A DNA stretch of 64,000 bases from an uncultured Chloroflexia bacterium (GTDB lineage Bacteria > Chloroflexota > Limnocylindria > Limnocylindrales > CSP1-4), in the NCBI GenBank assembly GCA_963838115.1, contig CAWIPU010000003.1, positions 26,591 to 90,590 on the forward strand, given 5' to 3'. The notes below the pieces were generated by a model, which was not told where the DNA came from, ran no database searches, and was given only the letters and a program-made list of their open reading frames with translations. This document shows positions 7,686 to 40,865 of the stretch, piece by piece. The first letter of the stretch is position 1; each line of letters starts with the position of its first letter. The position numbers were made by a program, and so were the translations under genes.

Positions 7686-7754
7686 ATCTCATGCGGCAAG
7701 CATCGTGTCGGCTGCCGGAACGGCACCGGCTGAAGCGCTGGAGGGAGACGATCG

Positions 7755-9050
7755 ATGACGCGTATCGTGCTGGTTGGCGCTGGAAGCGTCGAATTCACCC
7801 GCAATCTTCTGGGCGACATGTTGGTCTACCCGGAGTTGCGTGAGGCCACCATCGTGCTGCACGACATCGATGCCGATCGCCTTCGCACGGCTGAGCGGAT
7901 GGCGGCCTGGACAGCCTCGGCCCTTGGCGCCTCACCGGCCATCGAGGGCCATCTCGATCGACGTGCTGCACTCGAGGGAGCGGACTTCGTCATCGACACC
8001 ATCCAGGTTGGTGGCGCCCGAGCGACCCAGATCGACTTCGACATCCCGGCGCGCTACGGGCTCCGCTACACCATCAACGACACCATCAACGTGGGTGGCG
8101 TGATGCGCGGACTGCGCTCGATCCCGGTCGTGCTCGACATCGTGCACGACATGGAACAGGTGTGCCCCGATGCTTGGTTCCTGAACTACACCAACCCCAT
8201 GGGCATGCTGGTGCGGGCCGTTGCCGAGCGCAGCGGGATCAGGACCGTGGGGCTGTGTCACTCCGTCTTCTGGACCATCGACACCCTCGCGGGCTACCTG
8301 GGCCTGCCGCGCGAGGAGATGGACTACGTCTCGGCGGGGGTCAACCACCTGGCCTTCCTGCTGCGACTCGAGCACCGTGGCCGCGACCTCTATCCCGAGC
8401 TGCGATCGTTCGTGGCCGAGGGTCGGGTGCCCGATGACGACCTGGTACGGGCGGAACTCTTCTCCCGGCTCGGCTACTACCCTACTGAATCGTCCGAGCA
8501 CCACGCCGAATACAACCCTTGGTTCATCCCCAAGGGAGATGCTGTGGAGCGCTATCACATCCCCATCGGGGAATACCTCGATCGCGTCGCCCACAACCTC
8601 GATGAGTACGCTGAGACCAAGCGACGGCTCGACGCCGGCGAGCCCTTCGAGATCGAGCAGAGCGGCGAGTACGCCGCGGTGATCATCCACTCACTGCTGA
8701 CCAGCGAGCCCGCTCGCATCGTGGGCAATGTGATGAACGATGGATCGCTGATCGCCAACCTGGCCGCCGACGCGTGCGTCGAGGTCACCTGTCTGGTCGA
8801 TGGCACCGGGGTCTGGCCGGTGCATGCTGGAGCCTTGCCGCCCCAGTGCAGTGCTTACATCGGTCCGGCCGTGGATACGCAGGCTTTGACCGTGCGGGCA
8901 GCCCTGGACCAGGATCGTGAGGCCATCTATCACGCGGTCATGCAGGATCCCCAGATCATGGCACGTCTGAGCCTGGACGAGACCTGGCGGCTGACCGACG
9001 AGTTGATCGAGGCCGAGGCCGAGTGGCTGCCCGGCTGGCTCCAGGCTTGA
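7755..9050 (+). CDS. Family 4 glycoside hydrolase (alpha-galactosidase MelA-like)
   Basis: GAGS NAD-binding start, NYTNP, GLCHS, GVNH, 'TESSEHHAEY'. Confidence 0.92.
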   Translation: MTRIVLVGAGSVEFTRNLLGDMLVYPELREATIVLHDIDADRLRTAERMAAWTASALGASPAIEGHLDRRAALEGADFVIDTIQVGGARATQIDFDIPARYGLRYTINDTINVGGVMRGLRSIPVVLDIVHDMEQVCPDAWFLNYTNPMGMLVRAVAERSGIRTVGLCHSVFWTIDTLAGYLGLPREEMDYVSAGVNHLAFLLRLEHRGRDLYPELRSFVAEGRVPDDDLVRAELFSRLGYYPTESSEHHAEYNPWFIPKGDAVERYHIPIGEYLDRVAHNLDEYAETKRRLDAGEPFEIEQSGEYAAVIIHSLLTSEPARIVGNVMNDGSLIANLAADACVEVTCLVDGTGVWPVHAGALPPQCSAYIGPAVDTQALTVRAALDQDREAIYHAVMQDPQIMARLSLDETWRLTDELIEAEAEWLPGWLQA

Positions 9051-9066
9051 CACTCCTGCGACGATG

Positions 9067-9090
9067 ACATCCGGACATCCGGACATCCGG
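9067..9090. repeat. Perfect tandem repeat (ACATCCGG)x3 upstream of the SBP gene, putative operator
   Basis: Directly visible; continues as ATGT, giving the palindrome ACATCCGGATGT. Confidence 0.75.
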
Positions 9091-9137
9091 ATGTTCCCCG
9101 GCCGACGGGCCGTGGTCGTACGCAGGAGGTTGGCTCG

Positions 9138-10424
9138 ATGATCGAACGATCAGGAAATCGCCGACGCGCCGGCTTTGCGCTCATCGGTAGTGCCATGCTG
9201 GTAGGTGCGCTGGTGGCGCCAGCGGCGGCGCAGGAGCCCAGCGGCAAGATCACCTATGCCATCTGGGGCGATCCATCCGAGCTCGCCAGCCAGATCGCTC
9301 TGGTCCAGGCTTTCGAGGCGGAGCATCCCGACATCGACGTGGAGGTCACGGTCTCGGACTGGGATGCCTATTGGACCGGGCTCCAAACCAGCATCGCCGG
9401 CGGCGATGCACCCGACGTCTTCGCCATGGATGGCCCCATATTCCCCGACTACCAGTCCCGTGGCGTGCTGCTCGACCTGCAACCGTACATCGCCGCCGAT
9501 GGCTTTGATGTCTCCGCCCTCGCCGACGCCGGAGTGGCCCACTTCACCACCACCGACGGCGGTCAATACGGCCTGCCTCGCGATCTCAACGTGGTCCCGC
9601 TCTTCTACAACAAGACGATGTTCGATGCCGCCGGCATCCCTTATCCGGACGAGACCTGGGACTGGAACAAGCTGGTCGAGGTGGGGCAGCAGCTGACCAT
9701 CGACGAGAACGGGGACGGCCTGCCCGAGCAGTGGGGTTTCTATACCGAGACCACCGACATGGAGAACTTCTGGAGCGAAGCCGTCTGGCAGAACGGTGGT
9801 GAGATCATCTCCGATGATCGCACCCAGACGCTGCTGGGCAGCGACGAAGCGGTGGGCGGCTTGCAGTTCCTGCAGGACCTGATCTACAAGTACAAGATCA
9901 TGGCTACGCCCGACCTGTTCGCCGAGACTGGCGATGCCTTCGAGCAGGGCCTGGCCGCGATGGAAGCCAATGGTTCGTGGCTCGTGCCCACGCACACGGC
10001 CGCCGGCATCGACTTCGGCATCGCACCCTTGCCGGCCGGTACAGCAGGGCATGCCACCAGCCTCAACCCCACCGGGGCAGTCGTCTCGGCGAGCTCCAGG
10101 AACCCCGATGCTGCGTGGGAGTTCGTCAAGTGGCTGGTGGGTCCTGAGGCCCAGGAGATGCTGATGCAGGGGAAGGTCGCGCTACCGGTCGACAAGTCGG
10201 TCCTCGAGGGTAGCTACGCATCCGCGTTCGAAGGCTCGGACGTGATGGCGGCCATGCTCGAGCATGCTCACTTGAAGCCGTCGTTCGCGGGCTACTCGGA
10301 ATGGAGCACCATCCTCCAGAACGAGCTGGATACCAACCTGTTCAATGCCCCCAACAAGACCGCCCGCGAGGCGATCGATTCGGTCATCGGACAGCTTGAC
10401 GAGATCCTGGCTGCACAGCAGTAG
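9138..10424 (+). CDS. Sugar ABC transporter substrate-binding protein
   Basis: AGGAGG RBS; signal peptide ending AAA-QE; 'APDVF', 'LFYNKTMFDAAG'. Confidence 0.92.
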   Translation: MIERSGNRRRAGFALIGSAMLVGALVAPAAAQEPSGKITYAIWGDPSELASQIALVQAFEAEHPDIDVEVTVSDWDAYWTGLQTSIAGGDAPDVFAMDGPIFPDYQSRGVLLDLQPYIAADGFDVSALADAGVAHFTTTDGGQYGLPRDLNVVPLFYNKTMFDAAGIPYPDETWDWNKLVEVGQQLTIDENGDGLPEQWGFYTETTDMENFWSEAVWQNGGEIISDDRTQTLLGSDEAVGGLQFLQDLIYKYKIMATPDLFAETGDAFEQGLAAMEANGSWLVPTHTAAGIDFGIAPLPAGTAGHATSLNPTGAVVSASSRNPDAAWEFVKWLVGPEAQEMLMQGKVALPVDKSVLEGSYASAFEGSDVMAAMLEHAHLKPSFAGYSEWSTILQNELDTNLFNAPNKTAREAIDSVIGQLDEILAAQQ

Positions 10425-10493
10425 CCGGGATCGGAAGACCTCGGCCATGGCGCTGGTTCCCTCCGTCGCCGTGGCCACAGCCGTGAGCCGATC

Positions 10494-11468
10494 GTGAGGA
10501 TCTCCGGCAGTCCCGTGGTGGAGGGTACCTCCACCGGACAGGGCGCCCAGGGAGTTGGTTCGCCCCTCGAGGGGCGAACCAACAGTTCGCGCAGCCCTCT
10601 ACATGGGGAGAGTCGCTGGGCCTGGCTCTTCCTGGCTCCCACCATCCTGGGCCTGGCGGTCCTCTCAGCGGGACCCATCCTTGCCACGCTGGGGATCAGC
10701 CTGACCGACTGGGACCTGTTGACCCCGCCGCAGTGGGTGGGTCTCGACAACTTCACGGCGCTCGCCGAGAGCCCGCGCTTCTGGAAGGCGATGCAGAACA
10801 CCGCCTTCTACACGCTGCTCTCCGTGCCCGTCGGCATGCTCATCGCCCTGGCCATCGCCCTCGGTCTGGACCAGGCCATCCGCGGGATCGCCTGGATCCG
10901 CACCATGTACTTCCTGCCCTTGGTGACCTCGGCGGTGGCCGTGGGCCTGGTGTGGCTCTGGATCTACTCGCCCCAGGGCGGACTGCTCAACGCGCTGACC
11001 GGCATCTTCGGTGTTCCGCCCCAGCGCTGGGTATCCGATCCCTTCTGGGCCATGCCGGCCATCATCGTGATGAGCATCTGGCAGGGCCTGGGTGTCAACA
11101 TCATCATCTTCCTGGCCGGTCTGCAGGCGATCCCACGGGAGTACTACGACGCTTCCGACGTGGACGGCGCCGGCCGTTGGGGGCGCTTCCGCAACGTGAC
11201 GCTGCCGCTGCTGACTCCGAGCATCTTCTTCACCGGCATCCTGAGCTTCATCGGTGCCATGCAAGTGTTCGACCAGGTCTACATCCTGGCGCGACCGGGA
11301 CCACCCACCGAAGCCACCATCACCCTGGTCTACTTCATCTACGAGGAAGGCTTCCGCTTCTTCCGCATGGGCCAGGCCAGCGCCGCGGCCTGGGTGCTGT
11401 TCGTCGTCGCCGCCACGTTGACGTACTTCTACTTTCGTCTGCAACGCCGCTGGGTGCACTACCAGTGA
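10494..11468 (+). CDS. Carbohydrate ABC transporter permease
   Basis: 'LAGLQAIPREYYDASDVDGA' EAA loop; start uncertain. Confidence 0.9.
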   Translation: MRISGSPVVEGTSTGQGAQGVGSPLEGRTNSSRSPLHGESRWAWLFLAPTILGLAVLSAGPILATLGISLTDWDLLTPPQWVGLDNFTALAESPRFWKAMQNTAFYTLLSVPVGMLIALAIALGLDQAIRGIAWIRTMYFLPLVTSAVAVGLVWLWIYSPQGGLLNALTGIFGVPPQRWVSDPFWAMPAIIVMSIWQGLGVNIIIFLAGLQAIPREYYDASDVDGAGRWGRFRNVTLPLLTPSIFFTGILSFIGAMQVFDQVYILARPGPPTEATITLVYFIYEEGFRFFRMGQASAAAWVLFVVAATLTYFYFRLQRRWVHYQ

Positions 11469-35830: not shown

Positions 35831-36214
35831 TCAGTCCATCGCTGAGAACAGGAACAGGACCAGCGCGAGGGCACCGGCCACGATCGCCACCGTCAGAGCC
35901 AAGTGCGCGAGGATGGCCGGCCGATAGGTGCCCGTGTCGATCTCGCGTTCGGTGCGCACGAAGCGGTAGGCACCCATCATCGAGACGACCGCGCCTAGCA
36001 CCACGATGGCGATGCCGATGATCGAGCCCGTCGCCACCGAGCTGCCGTCTTCGAGGGCGAAGCGGTCGACCAGGAAGCCGATGGCTACCACACCCAGGGC
36101 CGTGCGTTGCCAGGCCAAGAGCGTTCGCTCGTTGGCCAGGTGGTCGCGAACAGCCGCTTCGGGCATGTCCCGGCGGTCAGTCCGCTGCGGGCTGCCATTC
36201 GAGTCAGTCATCAC
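35831..36214 (-). CDS. YidH/DUF202 membrane protein
   Basis: 'RDHLANERTLLAWQRT' signature plus 3 TM helices. Confidence 0.9.
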   Translation of the reverse strand: MMTDSNGSPQRTDRRDMPEAAVRDHLANERTLLAWQRTALGVVAIGFLVDRFALEDGSSVATGSIIGIAIVVLGAVVSMMGAYRFVRTEREIDTGTYRPAILAHLALTVAIVAGALALVLFLFSAMD

Positions 36215-36399: not shown

Positions 36400-38427
36400 A
36401 TGTCACTACTCGAACGTGTCGAGGCGGCCAAACGAGGGATCGCCGCACCCGTACCCGGTGCACCTGTGCCCGGATCGCCCATCCCCGATGCACCGGCCGC
36501 GACCACGCCAGAGATCGGATCGCCGCCAGCGCCAGCACCCGCGTCGAGGCAGCAGCCTGTGCTGTCGCCCCGCATGTCCGCCCGCGAGCTGAGCTTCCGA
36601 GACATCCGCAACCGTGTCGGGGAGGCGGTCGCGGATGCCTTGTCCTCCCGGATCGACCTCTCCAACCCCAGCGGCGTGCGCGAGAGCCTGGCTCGCGAGA
36701 TCGATGAGTTCATCGGTGACTTCATCTTCGAGAACGACCTGAGCCTGACCCGCGACGAGCGCCGCCGGCTGGTCGAGGGCGTCATCGATGAGGTCGCCGG
36801 CTTCGGGCCTATCGAGCCCCTGCTGGCCGACTCGACCATCACCGAGGTCATGGTCAATGGCCCCGACCGTGTGTACATCGAGCGTGCCGGGCGCATCGAG
36901 AAGGTGCCGGTCACGTTCCGTGACGACGAGCACGTCCTCAACGTCATCGACCGCATCATCACCCCCCTTGGCCGACACATCGATGAGACCAGCCCCCGCG
37001 TGGACGCCCGTCTCCCCGACGGTTCCCGCGTCAATGCCATCATCAAGCCGCTCAGCCTGATCGGCCCCGTCATCACCGTGCGCAAGTTCGCCACGCGCTT
37101 CGCCGTCGACGATCTGGTCCGCTTCGGCACGGCCAGCCCGGAGATGTTCGACTTCCTTAAAGCCTGCGTGGAAGCGCAGCTGAACATCTTCCTCTCGGGT
37201 GGCACCGGGTCGGGCAAGACCACCACGTTGAACGTCATCTCCTCGTTCATCCCCGATACCGAGCGCATCGTCACCATCGAGGATGCCGCCGAGTTGCAGC
37301 TCAGCCAGCGGCACGTCATCACCCTCGAAGCGCGTCCGCCCAACCTCGAGGGAAGCGGTGAGATCACCATCCGTGACCTGCTGCGCAACGCGATGCACAT
37401 GCGACCCGACCGCATCATCGTGGGCGAGTGCCGCGCCGGCGAGGCGCTGGACATGGTGCAGGCCATGACGACGGGTCATGACGGCTCGCTCTCGACCGGC
37501 CACGCCAACACACCGCGTGACATGCTGCGACGCCTGGAGACGATGATCCTGATGACCGGTTACGATCTGCCGCTGCGGGCCATCCGTGAGCAGATCGCCT
37601 CCGCCGTGGACGTGCTGGTGCACACCGCCCGACTGCGCGACGGCTCGCGCAAGATCACCAGCATCACCGAGGTCTTCGGTGTCGAGGATGACGAGATCCT
37701 GACGCAGGAGATCTTCCGCTACCAACAGACCGGCGTGATCGACGGCAAGATCCAGGGCGACCTGAAGCCGACGGGCATCCGGCCCACCTTCATGCCCACG
37801 TTCGAATCGCGTGGCGTGACGCTGCCGCCGGGTCAGTACGGCATCCCGCCGCAGGATCCGGCGCAGCCGGCGCGACCCGGCAAATCACGCTGGGGCTTTG
37901 GTGGCGTAGCTCCGGCCGTTGCCGTCGTGCCGGCAGGGCTGGGTCGGGGTCGCGTCACGGTGGCCGGCGGCATGGCTTACGTGTCAGCCATCGGTCCGGT
38001 CGATCCCGAGACCGGCCAGGTGAGCAACCCTGATATCAAGCTGCAGACTCGCCAGTGCCTGGCCAACCTGAAGGCCAGGCTCGAGTCGGTCGACAGCTCG
38101 CTCGACGCGGTGGTCTGGGCCAACTGGTCCCTGCGCGAGGCATCCGAGTTCGACACGTTCTACGAGGAATGGCAGCGCTGGTTCTCTGGCGAATCGCCGG
38201 TCGGGCAGGGCACACTGCTGCCACTGTCGCACCGGCGTGCCGGCTTCCGTGTGTCCGTCGGCGTGATCGCCTCGGTCCCAGCCGACCTGGCCGCAGCCCC
38301 GGCCGACTCAGCCGACCCAGCTGCCGAGGACGCCGCGGCCAAGCCCCCTGCGGTCATCTCGGTCGAGCGCCCAGTGGGCGCCGGCTCCACAGTCGCCATC
38401 CGCGTCGACGCGGATCGGCGAAGCTGA
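36400..38427 (+). CDS. cpaF: TadA/CpaF (VirB11-family) secretion ATPase fused to a C-terminal RidA/YjgF-like domain
   Basis: 'EVMVNG', 'VDARLPDGSR', Walker A GGTGSGKTT, IEDAAEL, RPDRIIVGE, 'TGH'; from about 37936 'MAYVSAIGPVDPETG...IKLQTRQCLANLKARLE'. Confidence 0.9.
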   Translation: MSLLERVEAAKRGIAAPVPGAPVPGSPIPDAPAATTPEIGSPPAPAPASRQQPVLSPRMSARELSFRDIRNRVGEAVADALSSRIDLSNPSGVRESLAREIDEFIGDFIFENDLSLTRDERRRLVEGVIDEVAGFGPIEPLLADSTITEVMVNGPDRVYIERAGRIEKVPVTFRDDEHVLNVIDRIITPLGRHIDETSPRVDARLPDGSRVNAIIKPLSLIGPVITVRKFATRFAVDDLVRFGTASPEMFDFLKACVEAQLNIFLSGGTGSGKTTTLNVISSFIPDTERIVTIEDAAELQLSQRHVITLEARPPNLEGSGEITIRDLLRNAMHMRPDRIIVGECRAGEALDMVQAMTTGHDGSLSTGHANTPRDMLRRLETMILMTGYDLPLRAIREQIASAVDVLVHTARLRDGSRKITSITEVFGVEDDEILTQEIFRYQQTGVIDGKIQGDLKPTGIRPTFMPTFESRGVTLPPGQYGIPPQDPAQPARPGKSRWGFGGVAPAVAVVPAGLGRGRVTVAGGMAYVSAIGPVDPETGQVSNPDIKLQTRQCLANLKARLESVDSSLDAVVWANWSLREASEFDTFYEEWQRWFSGESPVGQGTLLPLSHRRAGFRVSVGVIASVPADLAAAPADSADPAAEDAAAKPPAVISVERPVGAGSTVAIRVDADRRS

Positions 38428-38450: not shown

Positions 38451-40865
38451 ATGGCGAACGACGCCCACGAACTCTTCATCGGCCATCGACTCGACGATGA
38501 GGGTCCTCTGACCGTCGATCCGGCCGACCTGACGACGCACGGCGTCATCGTGGGCATGACCGGTTCGGGCAAGACCGGGCTCGGCATCGACCTGCTCGAG
38601 GATGCGCTGTTGCAGGGTGTGCCCTGTCTGGTCATCGACCCCAAGGGGGACATGGGCAACCTGCTGCTGACGTTCCCGGACCTGGCGCCGTCCGATTTCC
38701 GGCCTTGGATCGAGGAGGCGGCCGCCGCTCGCGAAGGCATCACGCCCGACCAGCTCGCCGCCAAGACAGCCCAGACGTGGCGTGATGGACTCGGGCGAAG
38801 TGGCATCGCGCCCGAACGCATCGCCAGGCTGCGCCAGGCTGCCGGCTTCACCATCTACACGCCCGGGTCCAACGCGGGCGTGCCGCTGAACCTCATCGGC
38901 TCGCTGCAGGCGCCGGCCAGCGGCGACGATATCGAGGTCCTTCGTGACGAGGTCGAGGGCTTCACCTCCGGTCTGCTGGGCCTGGTCGGTATAGAGGCCG
39001 ACCCACTCGCGAGCCCTGAGCACATCCTCATCGCCAGCCTCATCGAGCGCAGTTGGACCGCCGGCATTGATCTCGACCTGGCGACTCTGCTGGGCCAGAT
39101 CCAGGATCCGCCCATGCGCAAGCTCGGCGTCCTCGAGTTGGACACCTTCTACCCGCCGCGAGACCGCGCCGCGCTGGTCACCAAGCTCAACGGCCTGCTG
39201 GCCTCGCCTTCGTTCGCTGCCTGGAACCAGGGGTCGGCCATGGACATCGACGCCATGCTCCGCGCCGGCGGCCGACCACAGGCAGCCATCGTCACGGTTT
39301 CGCACCTGTCCGATAGCGAGCGCATGTTCGTGATCACGCTGCTGCTCTCCAGGATGGTGACATGGACGCGTCGCCAGCCGGGCACGGGCGAGCTGCGGGC
39401 GCTGATCTACATGGATGAGGTCTTCGGCTACGTTCCGCCCACCGCGAAGCCGCCGGCCAAGAAGCCCATCCTTACGCTCTTGAAGCAGGCGCGCGCCCAC
39501 GGCGTGGGCATGGTCCTTTCGACCCAGAACCCGGTCGATCTCGACTACAAGGCCATCAGCAATGCCGGCACCTGGATGATCGGCCGGCTTCAGACCGAGC
39601 GTGACAAGGCGCGACTGCTCGAGGGCATGATCGCGGCTACGGGCGCGGTGGACATGGCTTCGGTCGACGCCACCATCTCCGCGCTGGACAAGCGTCAGTT
39701 CCTGCTGCACAGCACCAGCACCGATGTGCCTCAGCGGTTCTCGACGCGCTGGGCCATGTCCTATCTGGCTGGGCCACTGACGCGTGACCAGATCAGGCTG
39801 CTGACCGTCGAGCAAGCGCTAGAAGCACCCGGACCGCCCGCCGCGCCAGCCGCCGCGCCAGCCGCCGCCGGACCAGCCGCCGACACGGCCGAACCGCCCG
39901 TCGCGCCCGTTGCTGCGCCAGCGCCCGAGCTGGCCGATGACGAGACGCGGGTCGCGCCGGAAGTCGCCGCCGACGTGCGCGTCTACTATCTCGACCCGGC
40001 GGCTCCATGGGCCGCGGCAGTCAACGCTGTGTCCGGAGGGAAGCGTCTGGCGGCAGGTCTCGTGACACATGTGCAGATGCTCTTCGATGACACCAAGGCT
40101 GAACTCCGCGAGGAGGTGGAGTGGGAAGCTGTCGTCTTCATCGAGGGTCGACAGGTCGACTGGGGTACCGCTCACGCGGTGGACCACGACCCCCGCGACC
40201 TTCGGGCCGAGGAGCCCGAGGGGGCCGTCTACGTGCTGCCGGGAGCACCCATCAAGGAGCAGGCCTGGTTCCGAGGGGCGGCCTCTGACCTCAAGGAGTA
40301 CCTCTACCGAGAGCAGACCATCACGTTGCAGACCAATCGCGAGCTGAAGCTGTACTCGCGCCCCGACGAGACGAAAGCGGCCTTCAGCGAGCGCTGCCGT
40401 GCTGTCGCCGACGAGGCCAAGGACGCGGAGGTGGCGAAGATCCGCGAGCGCCTCAGCAGCAAGATCGATCGGCTGAATGCCTCGATCGCGGCACACCAGG
40501 ACCGTATCGCCGAGATGGAAGCCGACGTGGCCGACCGCCGCAACCAGGATCTCATCTCCATCGGCAGCTCTGTGCTCGGTCGCATCCTGGGTGGTCGTGG
40601 CAGTGCCACCACCATCGCCCGCTCGGCTGGCCGAGCCGCGACTCGCGGTCAGTCCGCTGCGCAACGCATCGAAACCATCGAGAACCGCATCAACGAAGAT
40701 GACCTCAAGCTCGAAGACCTCGAAGATGACCTGCGTGAGGCCGTCACCACCATCGATGAGGAGTGGAGCCAGAAGGCCGGGGCCATCGAGCCGTTCGAGG
40801 TCGGCCTTGAGAAGAACGACATCAGCATCGATGAGCTGAGCCTCGTCTGGCTGCCGGTCGGCTAG
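38451..40865 (+). CDS. HerA/FtsK/VirB4-superfamily ATPase (DUF87-like) with Pro/Ala linker and C-terminal coiled coil
   Basis: 'THGVIVGMTGSGKT', 'IDPKGD', 'YMDE', 'KQARAHGVG..LSTQNP'. Confidence 0.88.
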   Translation: MANDAHELFIGHRLDDEGPLTVDPADLTTHGVIVGMTGSGKTGLGIDLLEDALLQGVPCLVIDPKGDMGNLLLTFPDLAPSDFRPWIEEAAAAREGITPDQLAAKTAQTWRDGLGRSGIAPERIARLRQAAGFTIYTPGSNAGVPLNLIGSLQAPASGDDIEVLRDEVEGFTSGLLGLVGIEADPLASPEHILIASLIERSWTAGIDLDLATLLGQIQDPPMRKLGVLELDTFYPPRDRAALVTKLNGLLASPSFAAWNQGSAMDIDAMLRAGGRPQAAIVTVSHLSDSERMFVITLLLSRMVTWTRRQPGTGELRALIYMDEVFGYVPPTAKPPAKKPILTLLKQARAHGVGMVLSTQNPVDLDYKAISNAGTWMIGRLQTERDKARLLEGMIAATGAVDMASVDATISALDKRQFLLHSTSTDVPQRFSTRWAMSYLAGPLTRDQIRLLTVEQALEAPGPPAAPAAAPAAAGPAADTAEPPVAPVAAPAPELADDETRVAPEVAADVRVYYLDPAAPWAAAVNAVSGGKRLAAGLVTHVQMLFDDTKAELREEVEWEAVVFIEGRQVDWGTAHAVDHDPRDLRAEEPEGAVYVLPGAPIKEQAWFRGAASDLKEYLYREQTITLQTNRELKLYSRPDETKAAFSERCRAVADEAKDAEVAKIRERLSSKIDRLNASIAAHQDRIAEMEADVADRRNQDLISIGSSVLGRILGGRGSATTIARSAGRAATRGQSAAQRIETIENRINEDDLKLEDLEDDLREAVTTIDEEWSQKAGAIEPFEVGLEKNDISIDELSLVWLPVG

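Follow-up and report, generated by a model that had tools for sequence, protein, structure and literature searches.

How a single CpaF ATPase both extends and retracts Tad (type IVc) pili is an open question, and the newest proposal is a flip of the motor ring. According to the available sections of a 2026 preprint (10.64898/2026.02.24.707734), CpaF reverses pilus movement by flipping, with its N-terminal face engaging the platform for extension and its C-terminal face for retraction. This inversion is supported by AlphaFold3 models, by point mutants and by an artificial mCherry tag at the C terminus; either the R387A mutation or the bulky mCherry fusion, which sterically blocks the C-terminal face, abolished observable retraction but not extension. 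Here we describe a gene at positions 36400..38427 of a 64,000-nucleotide stretch of DNA from an uncultured Chloroflexota bacterium (assembly GCA_963838115.1, contig CAWIPU010000003.1; hereafter the window), which encodes a CpaF/TadA-type ATPase continuing in frame into a Rid-like domain. We regard it as established, with very little room for doubt, that a conserved and, by its residues, catalytically dead Rid domain is fused here to an orphan paralogue of CpaF.

The reference for the ATPase part is the Tad pilus motor of Caulobacter crescentus (PDB 9e24-9e29 and 8rkd). Its predicted platform contacts on the extension face are G204, R205, D208, E331 and G334 (PMC12019362), and the available part of the same study sorts 292 CpaF orthologues into only three architecture classes, all differing at the N terminus. 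For the appended domain, the reference is the RidA/YjgF/UK114 family, in which RidA cannot hydrolyse imines without its Arg105 (Niehaus et al. 2015, PMC4433059). As described in the accessible portions of that survey, the Rid4-Rid7 subfamilies lack this arginine, with Trp at the site in Rid4 and Rid7 and variable residues in Rid5 and Rid6, and all of them retain the Glu; the Rid fusions named there are tandem Rid domains only. We found no description of a CpaF-Rid architecture in the literature, including the available parts of both surveys (PMC12019362 and PMC4433059), and an initial annotation of the window, made from its sequence, had likewise known of none.

A complete CpaF body with an appended domain

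The reading frame, on the + strand like all features described within it, is open under translation table 11 and encodes 675 amino acids plus the stop. Its start at the ATG at 36400 is supported by conservation of the N-terminal residues, M1-S2-L3-L4 and R6-V7-E8 being kept in at least 90% of 45 aligned homologues, and a purine-rich GAGAGGGGA is located 8-16 nt upstream. A promoter and terminator scan gave nothing above shuffled sequences, and the public runs listed as carrying the sequence include no RNA data set.

The protein retains the full CpaF body: a disordered N terminus, a three-helix bundle, an N-terminal domain (NTD) and an ATPase domain with all catalytic motifs. Pfam T2SSE matched residues 133-409 (E = 4.2e-62; 210 bits against a cut-off of 24.9), and the N-terminal 482 residues matched the solved Caulobacter CpaF (9e24) with E = 7.1e-123 over residues 14-465; the next solved family, represented by the archaeal secretion ATPase 2oap, followed at E = 2.9e-41. 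The best NCBIfam match was TIGR03819, yet both the fusion (307) and the canonical CpaF of the same genome (350) scored below its cut-off of 373. The Walker A motif GGTGSGKTTT occupies residues 267-276 (37198-37227), and the Asp box, RPDRI(I/V)VGE, the His box and the other catalytic motifs are invariant in 45 of 45 sequences. Judged by these motifs, the ATPase is intact.

The domain order is that of CpaF/TadA. A Pro/Ala-rich region at residues ~17-57 (36448..36570), predicted to be disordered (predicted local distance difference test score, pLDDT, below 50 at 17-57 in a full-length AlphaFold2 (AF2) model), corresponds to the 'class II' CpaF intrinsically disordered region as set out in the available part of PMC12019362. 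It is followed by the three-helix bundle at residues 61-132 (36580..36795; AF2 helices H61-84, H90-112 and H118-132), which aligns with that of Caulobacter CpaF, and by the NTD, or N2D (36796..37104), which begins with the T2SSE match at residue 133 and holds alpha5 and loop 8 of the extension face (residues 176-199). The C-terminal ATPase domain, at residues ~240-470 (37117..37809), contains Walker A, the Asp box, Walker B, the His box and an extended pore loop (311-323).

The fusion differs from CpaF/TadA in having about 190 additional C-terminal residues, made up of a Pro-rich connector, a linker, a Rid-fold domain and a tail; canonical CpaF copies stop at about residue 484 in fusion numbering. 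The connector (residues ~471-498; 37810..37893) has the consensus LPPGxFGIPPxDPxxPxxxGKxRW in the 45-sequence alignment, in which P476, G481, P483 and K495 are invariant and D486, P487, R497 and W498 are at least 90% conserved. The linker that follows (residues ~499-515; 37894..37944) is variable and probably flexible, its columns being unconserved and pLDDT falling below 50 at 496-507. After the Rid/YjgF-fold domain (residues 516-626; 37945..38277), the protein ends in an Ala/Pro-rich tail (residues 627-675; 38278..38424) that is predicted to be disordered (pLDDT below 50 at 633-675), varies among homologues and is common only to the fusion and its closest relative, L003. Homologues are mostly ~600-685 amino acids long.

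A catalytically degenerate Rid domain

Sequence and structure comparisons agree on the identity of the appended domain. Pfam Ribonuc_L-PSP (PF01042) matched residues 520-600 (E = 1.4e-10; 41.7 bits against a cut-off of 27.3), and the last 195 residues matched the solved Rid-family proteins 2dyy (E = 2.3e-10) and 2csl (TTHA0137; E = 9.8e-10). An AF2 model of residues 483-626, built with 26 sequences, had a mean pLDDT of 79, with 86-93 across most of the fold. When this model was compared with the PDB by Foldseek, YabJ, RidA and other YjgF-family proteins came out on top (root mean square deviation 1.7-2.0 A over ~112 columns, probability 1.00; template modelling score ~0.75, normalised by target length), indicating the chorismate-mutase-like Rid fold.

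The residues of the RidA active site have been replaced. The motif PVGQG (residues 600-604; 38197..38211) aligns with P-A-R-T/S in the genome's two free-standing RidA paralogues (frames of 137 and 127 amino acids) and with the PAR of 2csl. The 'YSQ' Tyr region of RidA reads 'G-RGR', removing the Tyr17 equivalent, and V-E-I-E or V-E-V reads V-S-(V/I)-G, removing the Glu120 equivalent. The replacements at the Arg, Tyr and Glu sites are more than 90% conserved across 116 fused domains; none of the 45 aligned sequences varies at P600, G602, Q603, R612, R613 or G615, and T605 is also among the invariant residues of the former active site. Against the RidA model TIGR00004, the fused domain scored 37 bits, compared with a cut-off of 106. 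Judged by these residues, the domain is catalytically degenerate, having lost the Arg that imine hydrolysis requires. It shares the lack of this Arg with Rid4-Rid7, from which, as those are characterised in the available part of PMC4433059, it is set apart by Gly/Gln at the Arg site, within an invariant PxGQ, and by Ser/Gly at the Glu site ('VS[IV]G'). Because both Arg and Glu are replaced, it fits neither RidA nor the Rid4-Rid7 subfamilies so described.

Rid-family proteins also provide the precedent for a trimer, which is predicted for the fused domain. A three-copy model gave an ipSAE (interaction prediction score from aligned errors) of 0.83, compared with 0.31 for the best control, although the many solved Rid trimers may drive this score; the mark used to calibrate it is reached by 20 of 30 solved homo-pairs and by 1 of 23 single chains. 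Contacts agreed by at least 91% between runs, with a partner pLDDT of at least 79, and the modelled interface includes the PVGQGT stretch (domain residues 116-124, protein residues 598-606). With so many Rid trimers solved, we take the model as a likeness, not as proof. What sets the domain apart from the rest of the Rid family is that it is joined to a motor ATPase.

These results bear out most of what the initial annotation had read from the gene, namely a complete VirB11/TadA ATPase with its motifs, followed by a RidA-like domain at about 37936-38274 that has 'PVGQG' and 'VSVG' in place of P-A-R-S and V-E-I-E and would be non-enzymatic. Its further suggestion of a trimerising module is consistent with the three-copy model and goes no further than that model allows.

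The fused domain most likely derives from a free-standing Rid subfamily specific to the Limnocylindria lineage, to judge from its closest relatives. A class-wide search returned ten further matches (E = 1e-24 to 1e-18, 39-44% identity), all free-standing proteins of ~125-135 amino acids (L089-L098, from genomes G171, G128, G095, G050, G027, G131, G021, G137, G195 and G162) that carry the fused domain's signature 'NEEWxRWFPxDPP' (full form 'NEEWxRWFPxDPPARQGA'). The Arg is kept in all ten, as PARQG in nine and PARSG in one; the Tyr site holds Tyr, Phe or Leu, and the Glu120 equivalent is already absent. Because these relatives retain the Arg, it would have been lost in the fused lineage, at or after the fusion. 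The free-standing subfamily sometimes occurs in the same genome as the fusion (G128, G095, G050, G131 and G137). Two of its members, L097 and L098 in family f4, lie in long open frames and were considered as fused forms; we rejected them as free-standing Rid genes inside high-GC frames, with no CpaF upstream (best tblastn E = 0.21, on the opposite strand). In a separate scan with PADLOC, the Rid region of the fusion gave a weak match to PD-T4-2_B (E = 1.6e-5).

Distribution of the fusion within one Chloroflexota family

We found the same architecture in a large set of homologues. In a search of 5.8 billion proteins, T2SSE and Ribonuc_L-PSP (PF00437 and PF01042) occurred together in 116 of the 120 best clusters, at 63-90% identity, with the domain checked by blastp. 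When the Rid part alone was used as the query against proteins of 371-1182 amino acids, there were 645 matches at E <=1e-5, and the best 120 all contained T2SSE. The precomputed annotations of both searches also list Pfam PF27713. The source labels of the matches were Limnocylindrales, Limnocylindria and Chloroflexota, together with single labels of Saccharimonadales and Anaerolineaceae metagenome-assembled genomes (MAGs). The four clusters of the first search that lack PF01042 (P0004, 1155 amino acids; P0016, 919; P0070, 998; P0075, 937) are tandem-T2SSE proteins, each with two or three complete T2SSE domains per polypeptide and 49-56% identity to the query core; either real covalently linked CpaF multimers or merged gene calls could explain them.

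Genome samples delimit the distribution. In a sample of 201 genomes from the class, sequences matching the fused domain over its full length, set in long open frames, were restricted to the window's family (f1), where 45 of the 60 other genomes had one (E <=6e-40, 51-67% identity). A genus-balanced sample of that family held the fusion in 58 of 120 other genomes (59 of 121 with the window's own), corresponding to 40 of 70 high-quality genomes, the window's included, and 29 of 49 genera; in the window's own genus, two of four other genomes had it. Across 301 genomes of the phylum, it was found in 11 of 15 from f1 and in 0 of 285 from other Chloroflexota families. Thus, the fusion is confined to one Limnocylindria-type Chloroflexota family and is patchy within it. 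The class and family tallies take in six genomes flagged as unpublished (G151, G067, G087, G112, G123 and G251), none of which is a fusion holder cited here; no conclusion depends on any one of them.

The chance that the fusion is an artefact or a decaying gene, produced by a lost stop codon, a frameshift or mis-assembly and carrying a non-functional tail, is negligible, and we rule it out on the grounds of conservation. The in-frame architecture recurs in those 116 clusters from many assemblies and sources and in about half of the sampled family genomes, many residues of the Rid domain are invariant, and contigs of two public DNA runs, which are fragmentary and may include the source sample, span the junction at 37751-37981 with no difference or gap. 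The initial annotation had allowed for a C terminus without the Rid fold, or for a lost stop codon between genes that are separate in homologues; the C terminus has the Rid fold, and the homologues, in related genomes as well, are fused.

Some fusion genes lie inside far longer open frames of ~900-1260 amino acids (L062, frame 7710-11420; L057; G134; G217; G164), which may be true extensions or simply frames kept open by high GC content. In one fusion homologue (L073:9309-9743), unrelated residues occur within the Rid domain with good alignment on either side, as would be expected from an assembly error or from a frameshift that is later compensated.

A CpaF paralogue encoded away from the tad locus

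The genome (G000, 3.54 Mb) contains two T2SSE genes, the fusion on the window's contig, C3, and a 477-amino-acid CpaF on another contig, C6. Its only two T2SSF (TadB/TadC) genes are on C6 beside the canonical CpaF, in one ordinary tad locus (C6:371000-389000; L088) that encodes a LuxR-type response regulator with a HisKA_3 kinase, a CpaE/TadZ-like protein, CpaF, TadB, TadC and a DUF192 protein. Neither tadB nor tadC lies beside the fusion gene, as the initial annotation had noted in proposing that the tad genes be sought elsewhere in the genome; the flp pilin was not searched for. The fusion gene is an orphan, always encoded away from the single tad locus, and differs from typical CpaF/TadA genes in this respect and in being a second copy in its genome. 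The CpaE/TadZ-like protein of the C6 locus has an N-terminal receiver domain fused to a ParA/MinD ATPase.

The ATPase bodies of the fusion and of the genome's canonical CpaF are 66% identical. From 72 ATPase cores we built a maximum-likelihood tree with midpoint rooting and no outgroup, in which 28 fused and 44 canonical copies fell on opposite sides of one branch (Shimodaira-Hasegawa-like approximate likelihood ratio test, 100); partial matches from ten loci (L049, L050, L051, L061, L069, L072, L075, L079, L080 and L082) were left out. The tree is consistent with a single origin of the fused copies, without proving it. Mean column entropy was 0.459 in the fused cores and 0.213 in the canonical ones, and by this measure the fused ATPase is a paralogue of canonical CpaF evolving about twice as fast. 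Of 120 family genomes, 111 had T2SSF genes, in most cases a single pair; because these genes are near-universal in the family, co-occurrence of the fusion with tad genes is uninformative.

Conservation of the extension and retraction faces

We compared the fused and canonical cores at the residues assigned to the two faces of CpaF. On the extension face, all 28 fused copies have the same residue at the equivalents of G204, R205, D208, E331 and G334, and the first three of these (G191, R192 and D195 of the fusion) are also invariant in 44 of 44 canonical copies. The fusion thus keeps all the predicted platform contacts of the extension face as well as the catalytic motifs of CpaF/TadA. The equivalent of R206 is Arg in 25 of the 28.

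The retraction-face residue R387 of Caulobacter CpaF corresponds to R373 of the fusion (codon 37516..37518) in an ungapped alignment to 9e24. This column is Arg in all 44 canonical copies, whereas the 28 fused copies have Lys (11), Arg (8), Pro (6), Ala (2) or Gln (1). When the 213 positions without variation in canonical copies are ranked by their variability in fused copies, it comes third, and the two positions ahead of it (442 and 469) are also in the C-terminal part. The R387 equivalent thus appears unconstrained in the fusion, a further difference from CpaF/TadA.

Genes around the fusion

No neighbouring gene family was found at more than 7 of 28 fusion loci, either by de novo clustering of open reading frames within plus or minus 8 kb or by tblastn with the window's neighbours. 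In the window, the fusion is followed by a gene for an ATPase of ~800 amino acids (38451-40865, +) that combines a HerA/DUF87-type P-loop at its N terminus with a long coiled coil at its C terminus; its start is probably at 38451, 23 nt past the fusion stop. It had no NCBIfam match and gave weak PADLOC matches to mad8 (7e-14) and HerA (3e-9). We considered this gene as an operon partner and rejected it, as it was present at none of the other fusion loci with flank available; at the 80%-identical relative L004, a gene for a sugar-binding protein lies directly after the fusion and the HerA/DUF87-like ATPase is absent. It may be an inserted defence-type or mobile gene. Upstream, a gene for a DUF202 (YidH-like) membrane protein (35831-36214, -) is divergent from the fusion at a distance of 185 nt, and this pairing is common only to the window and its closest relative, L003.

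In four MAGs that are 73-90% complete (G207, G229, G242 and G261), the fusion was the only T2SSE found, and no T2SSF was found. With about 59 holder genomes as incomplete as these samples are, roughly this number would be expected to miss the one contig by chance.

A possible retraction-face cap and its alternatives

The explanation that we favour, with a probability of roughly 40%, is that a Rid trimer caps the retraction face of the fused ATPase and biases or gates it as a second motor of the genome's one Tad machine. The hypothesis of a motor that is restricted in orientation or gated arises from setting this natural fusion, which adds a probably oligomerising domain at the C terminus, beside the blocked C-terminal face reported in the available sections of the preprint (10.64898/2026.02.24.707734). 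Like the engineered CpaF-mCherry of that work, as described there, the Limnocylindria protein has a folded domain appended to the C terminus of CpaF; unlike it, the fusion is natural and conserved, is predicted to oligomerise, has a longer linker and exists beside an unfused CpaF. Our reading rests on this precedent and on one asymmetric conservation signal, from which we infer the mechanism.

In such a mechanism, the Tad motor CpaF would have been duplicated and neo-functionalised, and Rid trimers would cap its C-terminal (retraction) face. The capped paralogue would then work on the same TadB/TadC platform either with a restricted orientation, biased towards extension, or as a gated motor, and the canonical CpaF would supply the other activity, in a division of labour like that of PilB and PilT. 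Genes for PilT-type retraction motors commonly lie apart from those for the pilus. The proposal resembles type IVa pili in placing two paralogous hexameric ATPases on one platform; it differs in that both Limnocylindria paralogues are of the CpaF type, at 66% identity, and that specialisation would come from an appended cap, not from a diverged face.

Several observations weigh against this proposal. Of the three retraction-face regions in the available part of the preprint, whose motif boundaries are approximated here, the N terminus of alpha11 is the only one specifically relaxed. The beta13-beta14 turn is equally conserved in the two groups (entropy 0.32 in fused and 0.42 in canonical copies), and the greater variability of the C-terminal motif does no more than match that of the core as a whole (ratio 1.9 versus 2.2); both argue against a simply idle C-terminal face. 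The compared sequences are kin, so the counts overstate their independence. The trimer score may reflect the many solved Rid trimers and not the fusion protein itself, the full-length monomer model (mean pLDDT 67.7, predicted template modelling score 0.44) cannot position the Rid domain on the ATPase ring, and a flexible linker of ~45 residues might give the domain enough reach to move off the face. The inversion model itself is a preprint that, in the sections available, rests partly on AlphaFold3 models (10.64898/2026.02.24.707734). With no neighbour shared by more than 7 of 28 loci, the link of the fusion to the Tad platform is an inferred one, and the four MAGs with neither T2SSF nor a second T2SSE are weak evidence against dependence on that platform.

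A different possibility, raised already in the initial annotation as a metabolite sensor, is that the Rid domain is a ligand-sensing regulator, in which the inter-subunit cleft of the trimer would bind a metabolite or a nucleotide second messenger and couple its level to the motor. Rid clefts bind small carboxylates in solved structures, according to the available part of PMC4433059. Residues of the former active site (P600, G602, Q603, T605, R612, R613 and G615) are invariant and have not decayed, they lie in or beside the modelled subunit interface, and the newly fixed Arg-Arg pair (R612 and R613) could bind an anionic ligand. However, the residues lost are precisely the Arg that binds the carboxylate and the equivalents of Tyr and Glu, the conservation at the interface is equally explained by trimer packing, and no metabolic gene is among the conserved neighbours at the 28 loci. 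We consider a sensor rather unlikely; it would be compatible with the cap model, as a gated cap.

Still less probable, in our view, is that the paralogue has left the Tad pilus altogether and drives another machine, with its partners encoded elsewhere and the Rid domain as an adaptor. Such a motor would account for an orphan gene in variable context, for the fast evolution of the fused ATPase, for the patchy distribution across genera and within the window's own genus, and for the four MAGs in which the fusion is the only T2SSE. Those MAGs are incomplete, however, and their tad genes, as one block, could be removed by a single missing contig. The genome has no other T2SSF-type platform, the core remains two-thirds identical to the canonical CpaF, and the predicted extension-face contacts are invariant in every fused copy, all of which weigh against such a motor.

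Implications for Tad motors

Beside the three N-terminal classes distinguished in the available part of PMC12019362, the fusion represents a fourth CpaF architecture and the first to carry a domain at the C terminus. It also provides a family of natural, conserved C-terminal fusions on a CpaF paralogue that coexists with an unfused copy. The broader generalisation, that some Tad systems have a two-motor division of labour in which a duplicated CpaF, capped by a trimerising dead Rid domain, acts as an orientation-locked or ligand-gated extension motor, is tentative and on balance doubtful. If the cap does block or gate the C-terminal face, these proteins would give a direct evolutionary and experimental handle on the flip model and an independent natural test of motor inversion as the basis of Tad pilus reversibility. 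They would also represent a route to PilB/PilT-like specialisation different from that taken by type IVa pili, and would assign to an Arg-less Rid domain its first role, that of a structural part of a motor protein.

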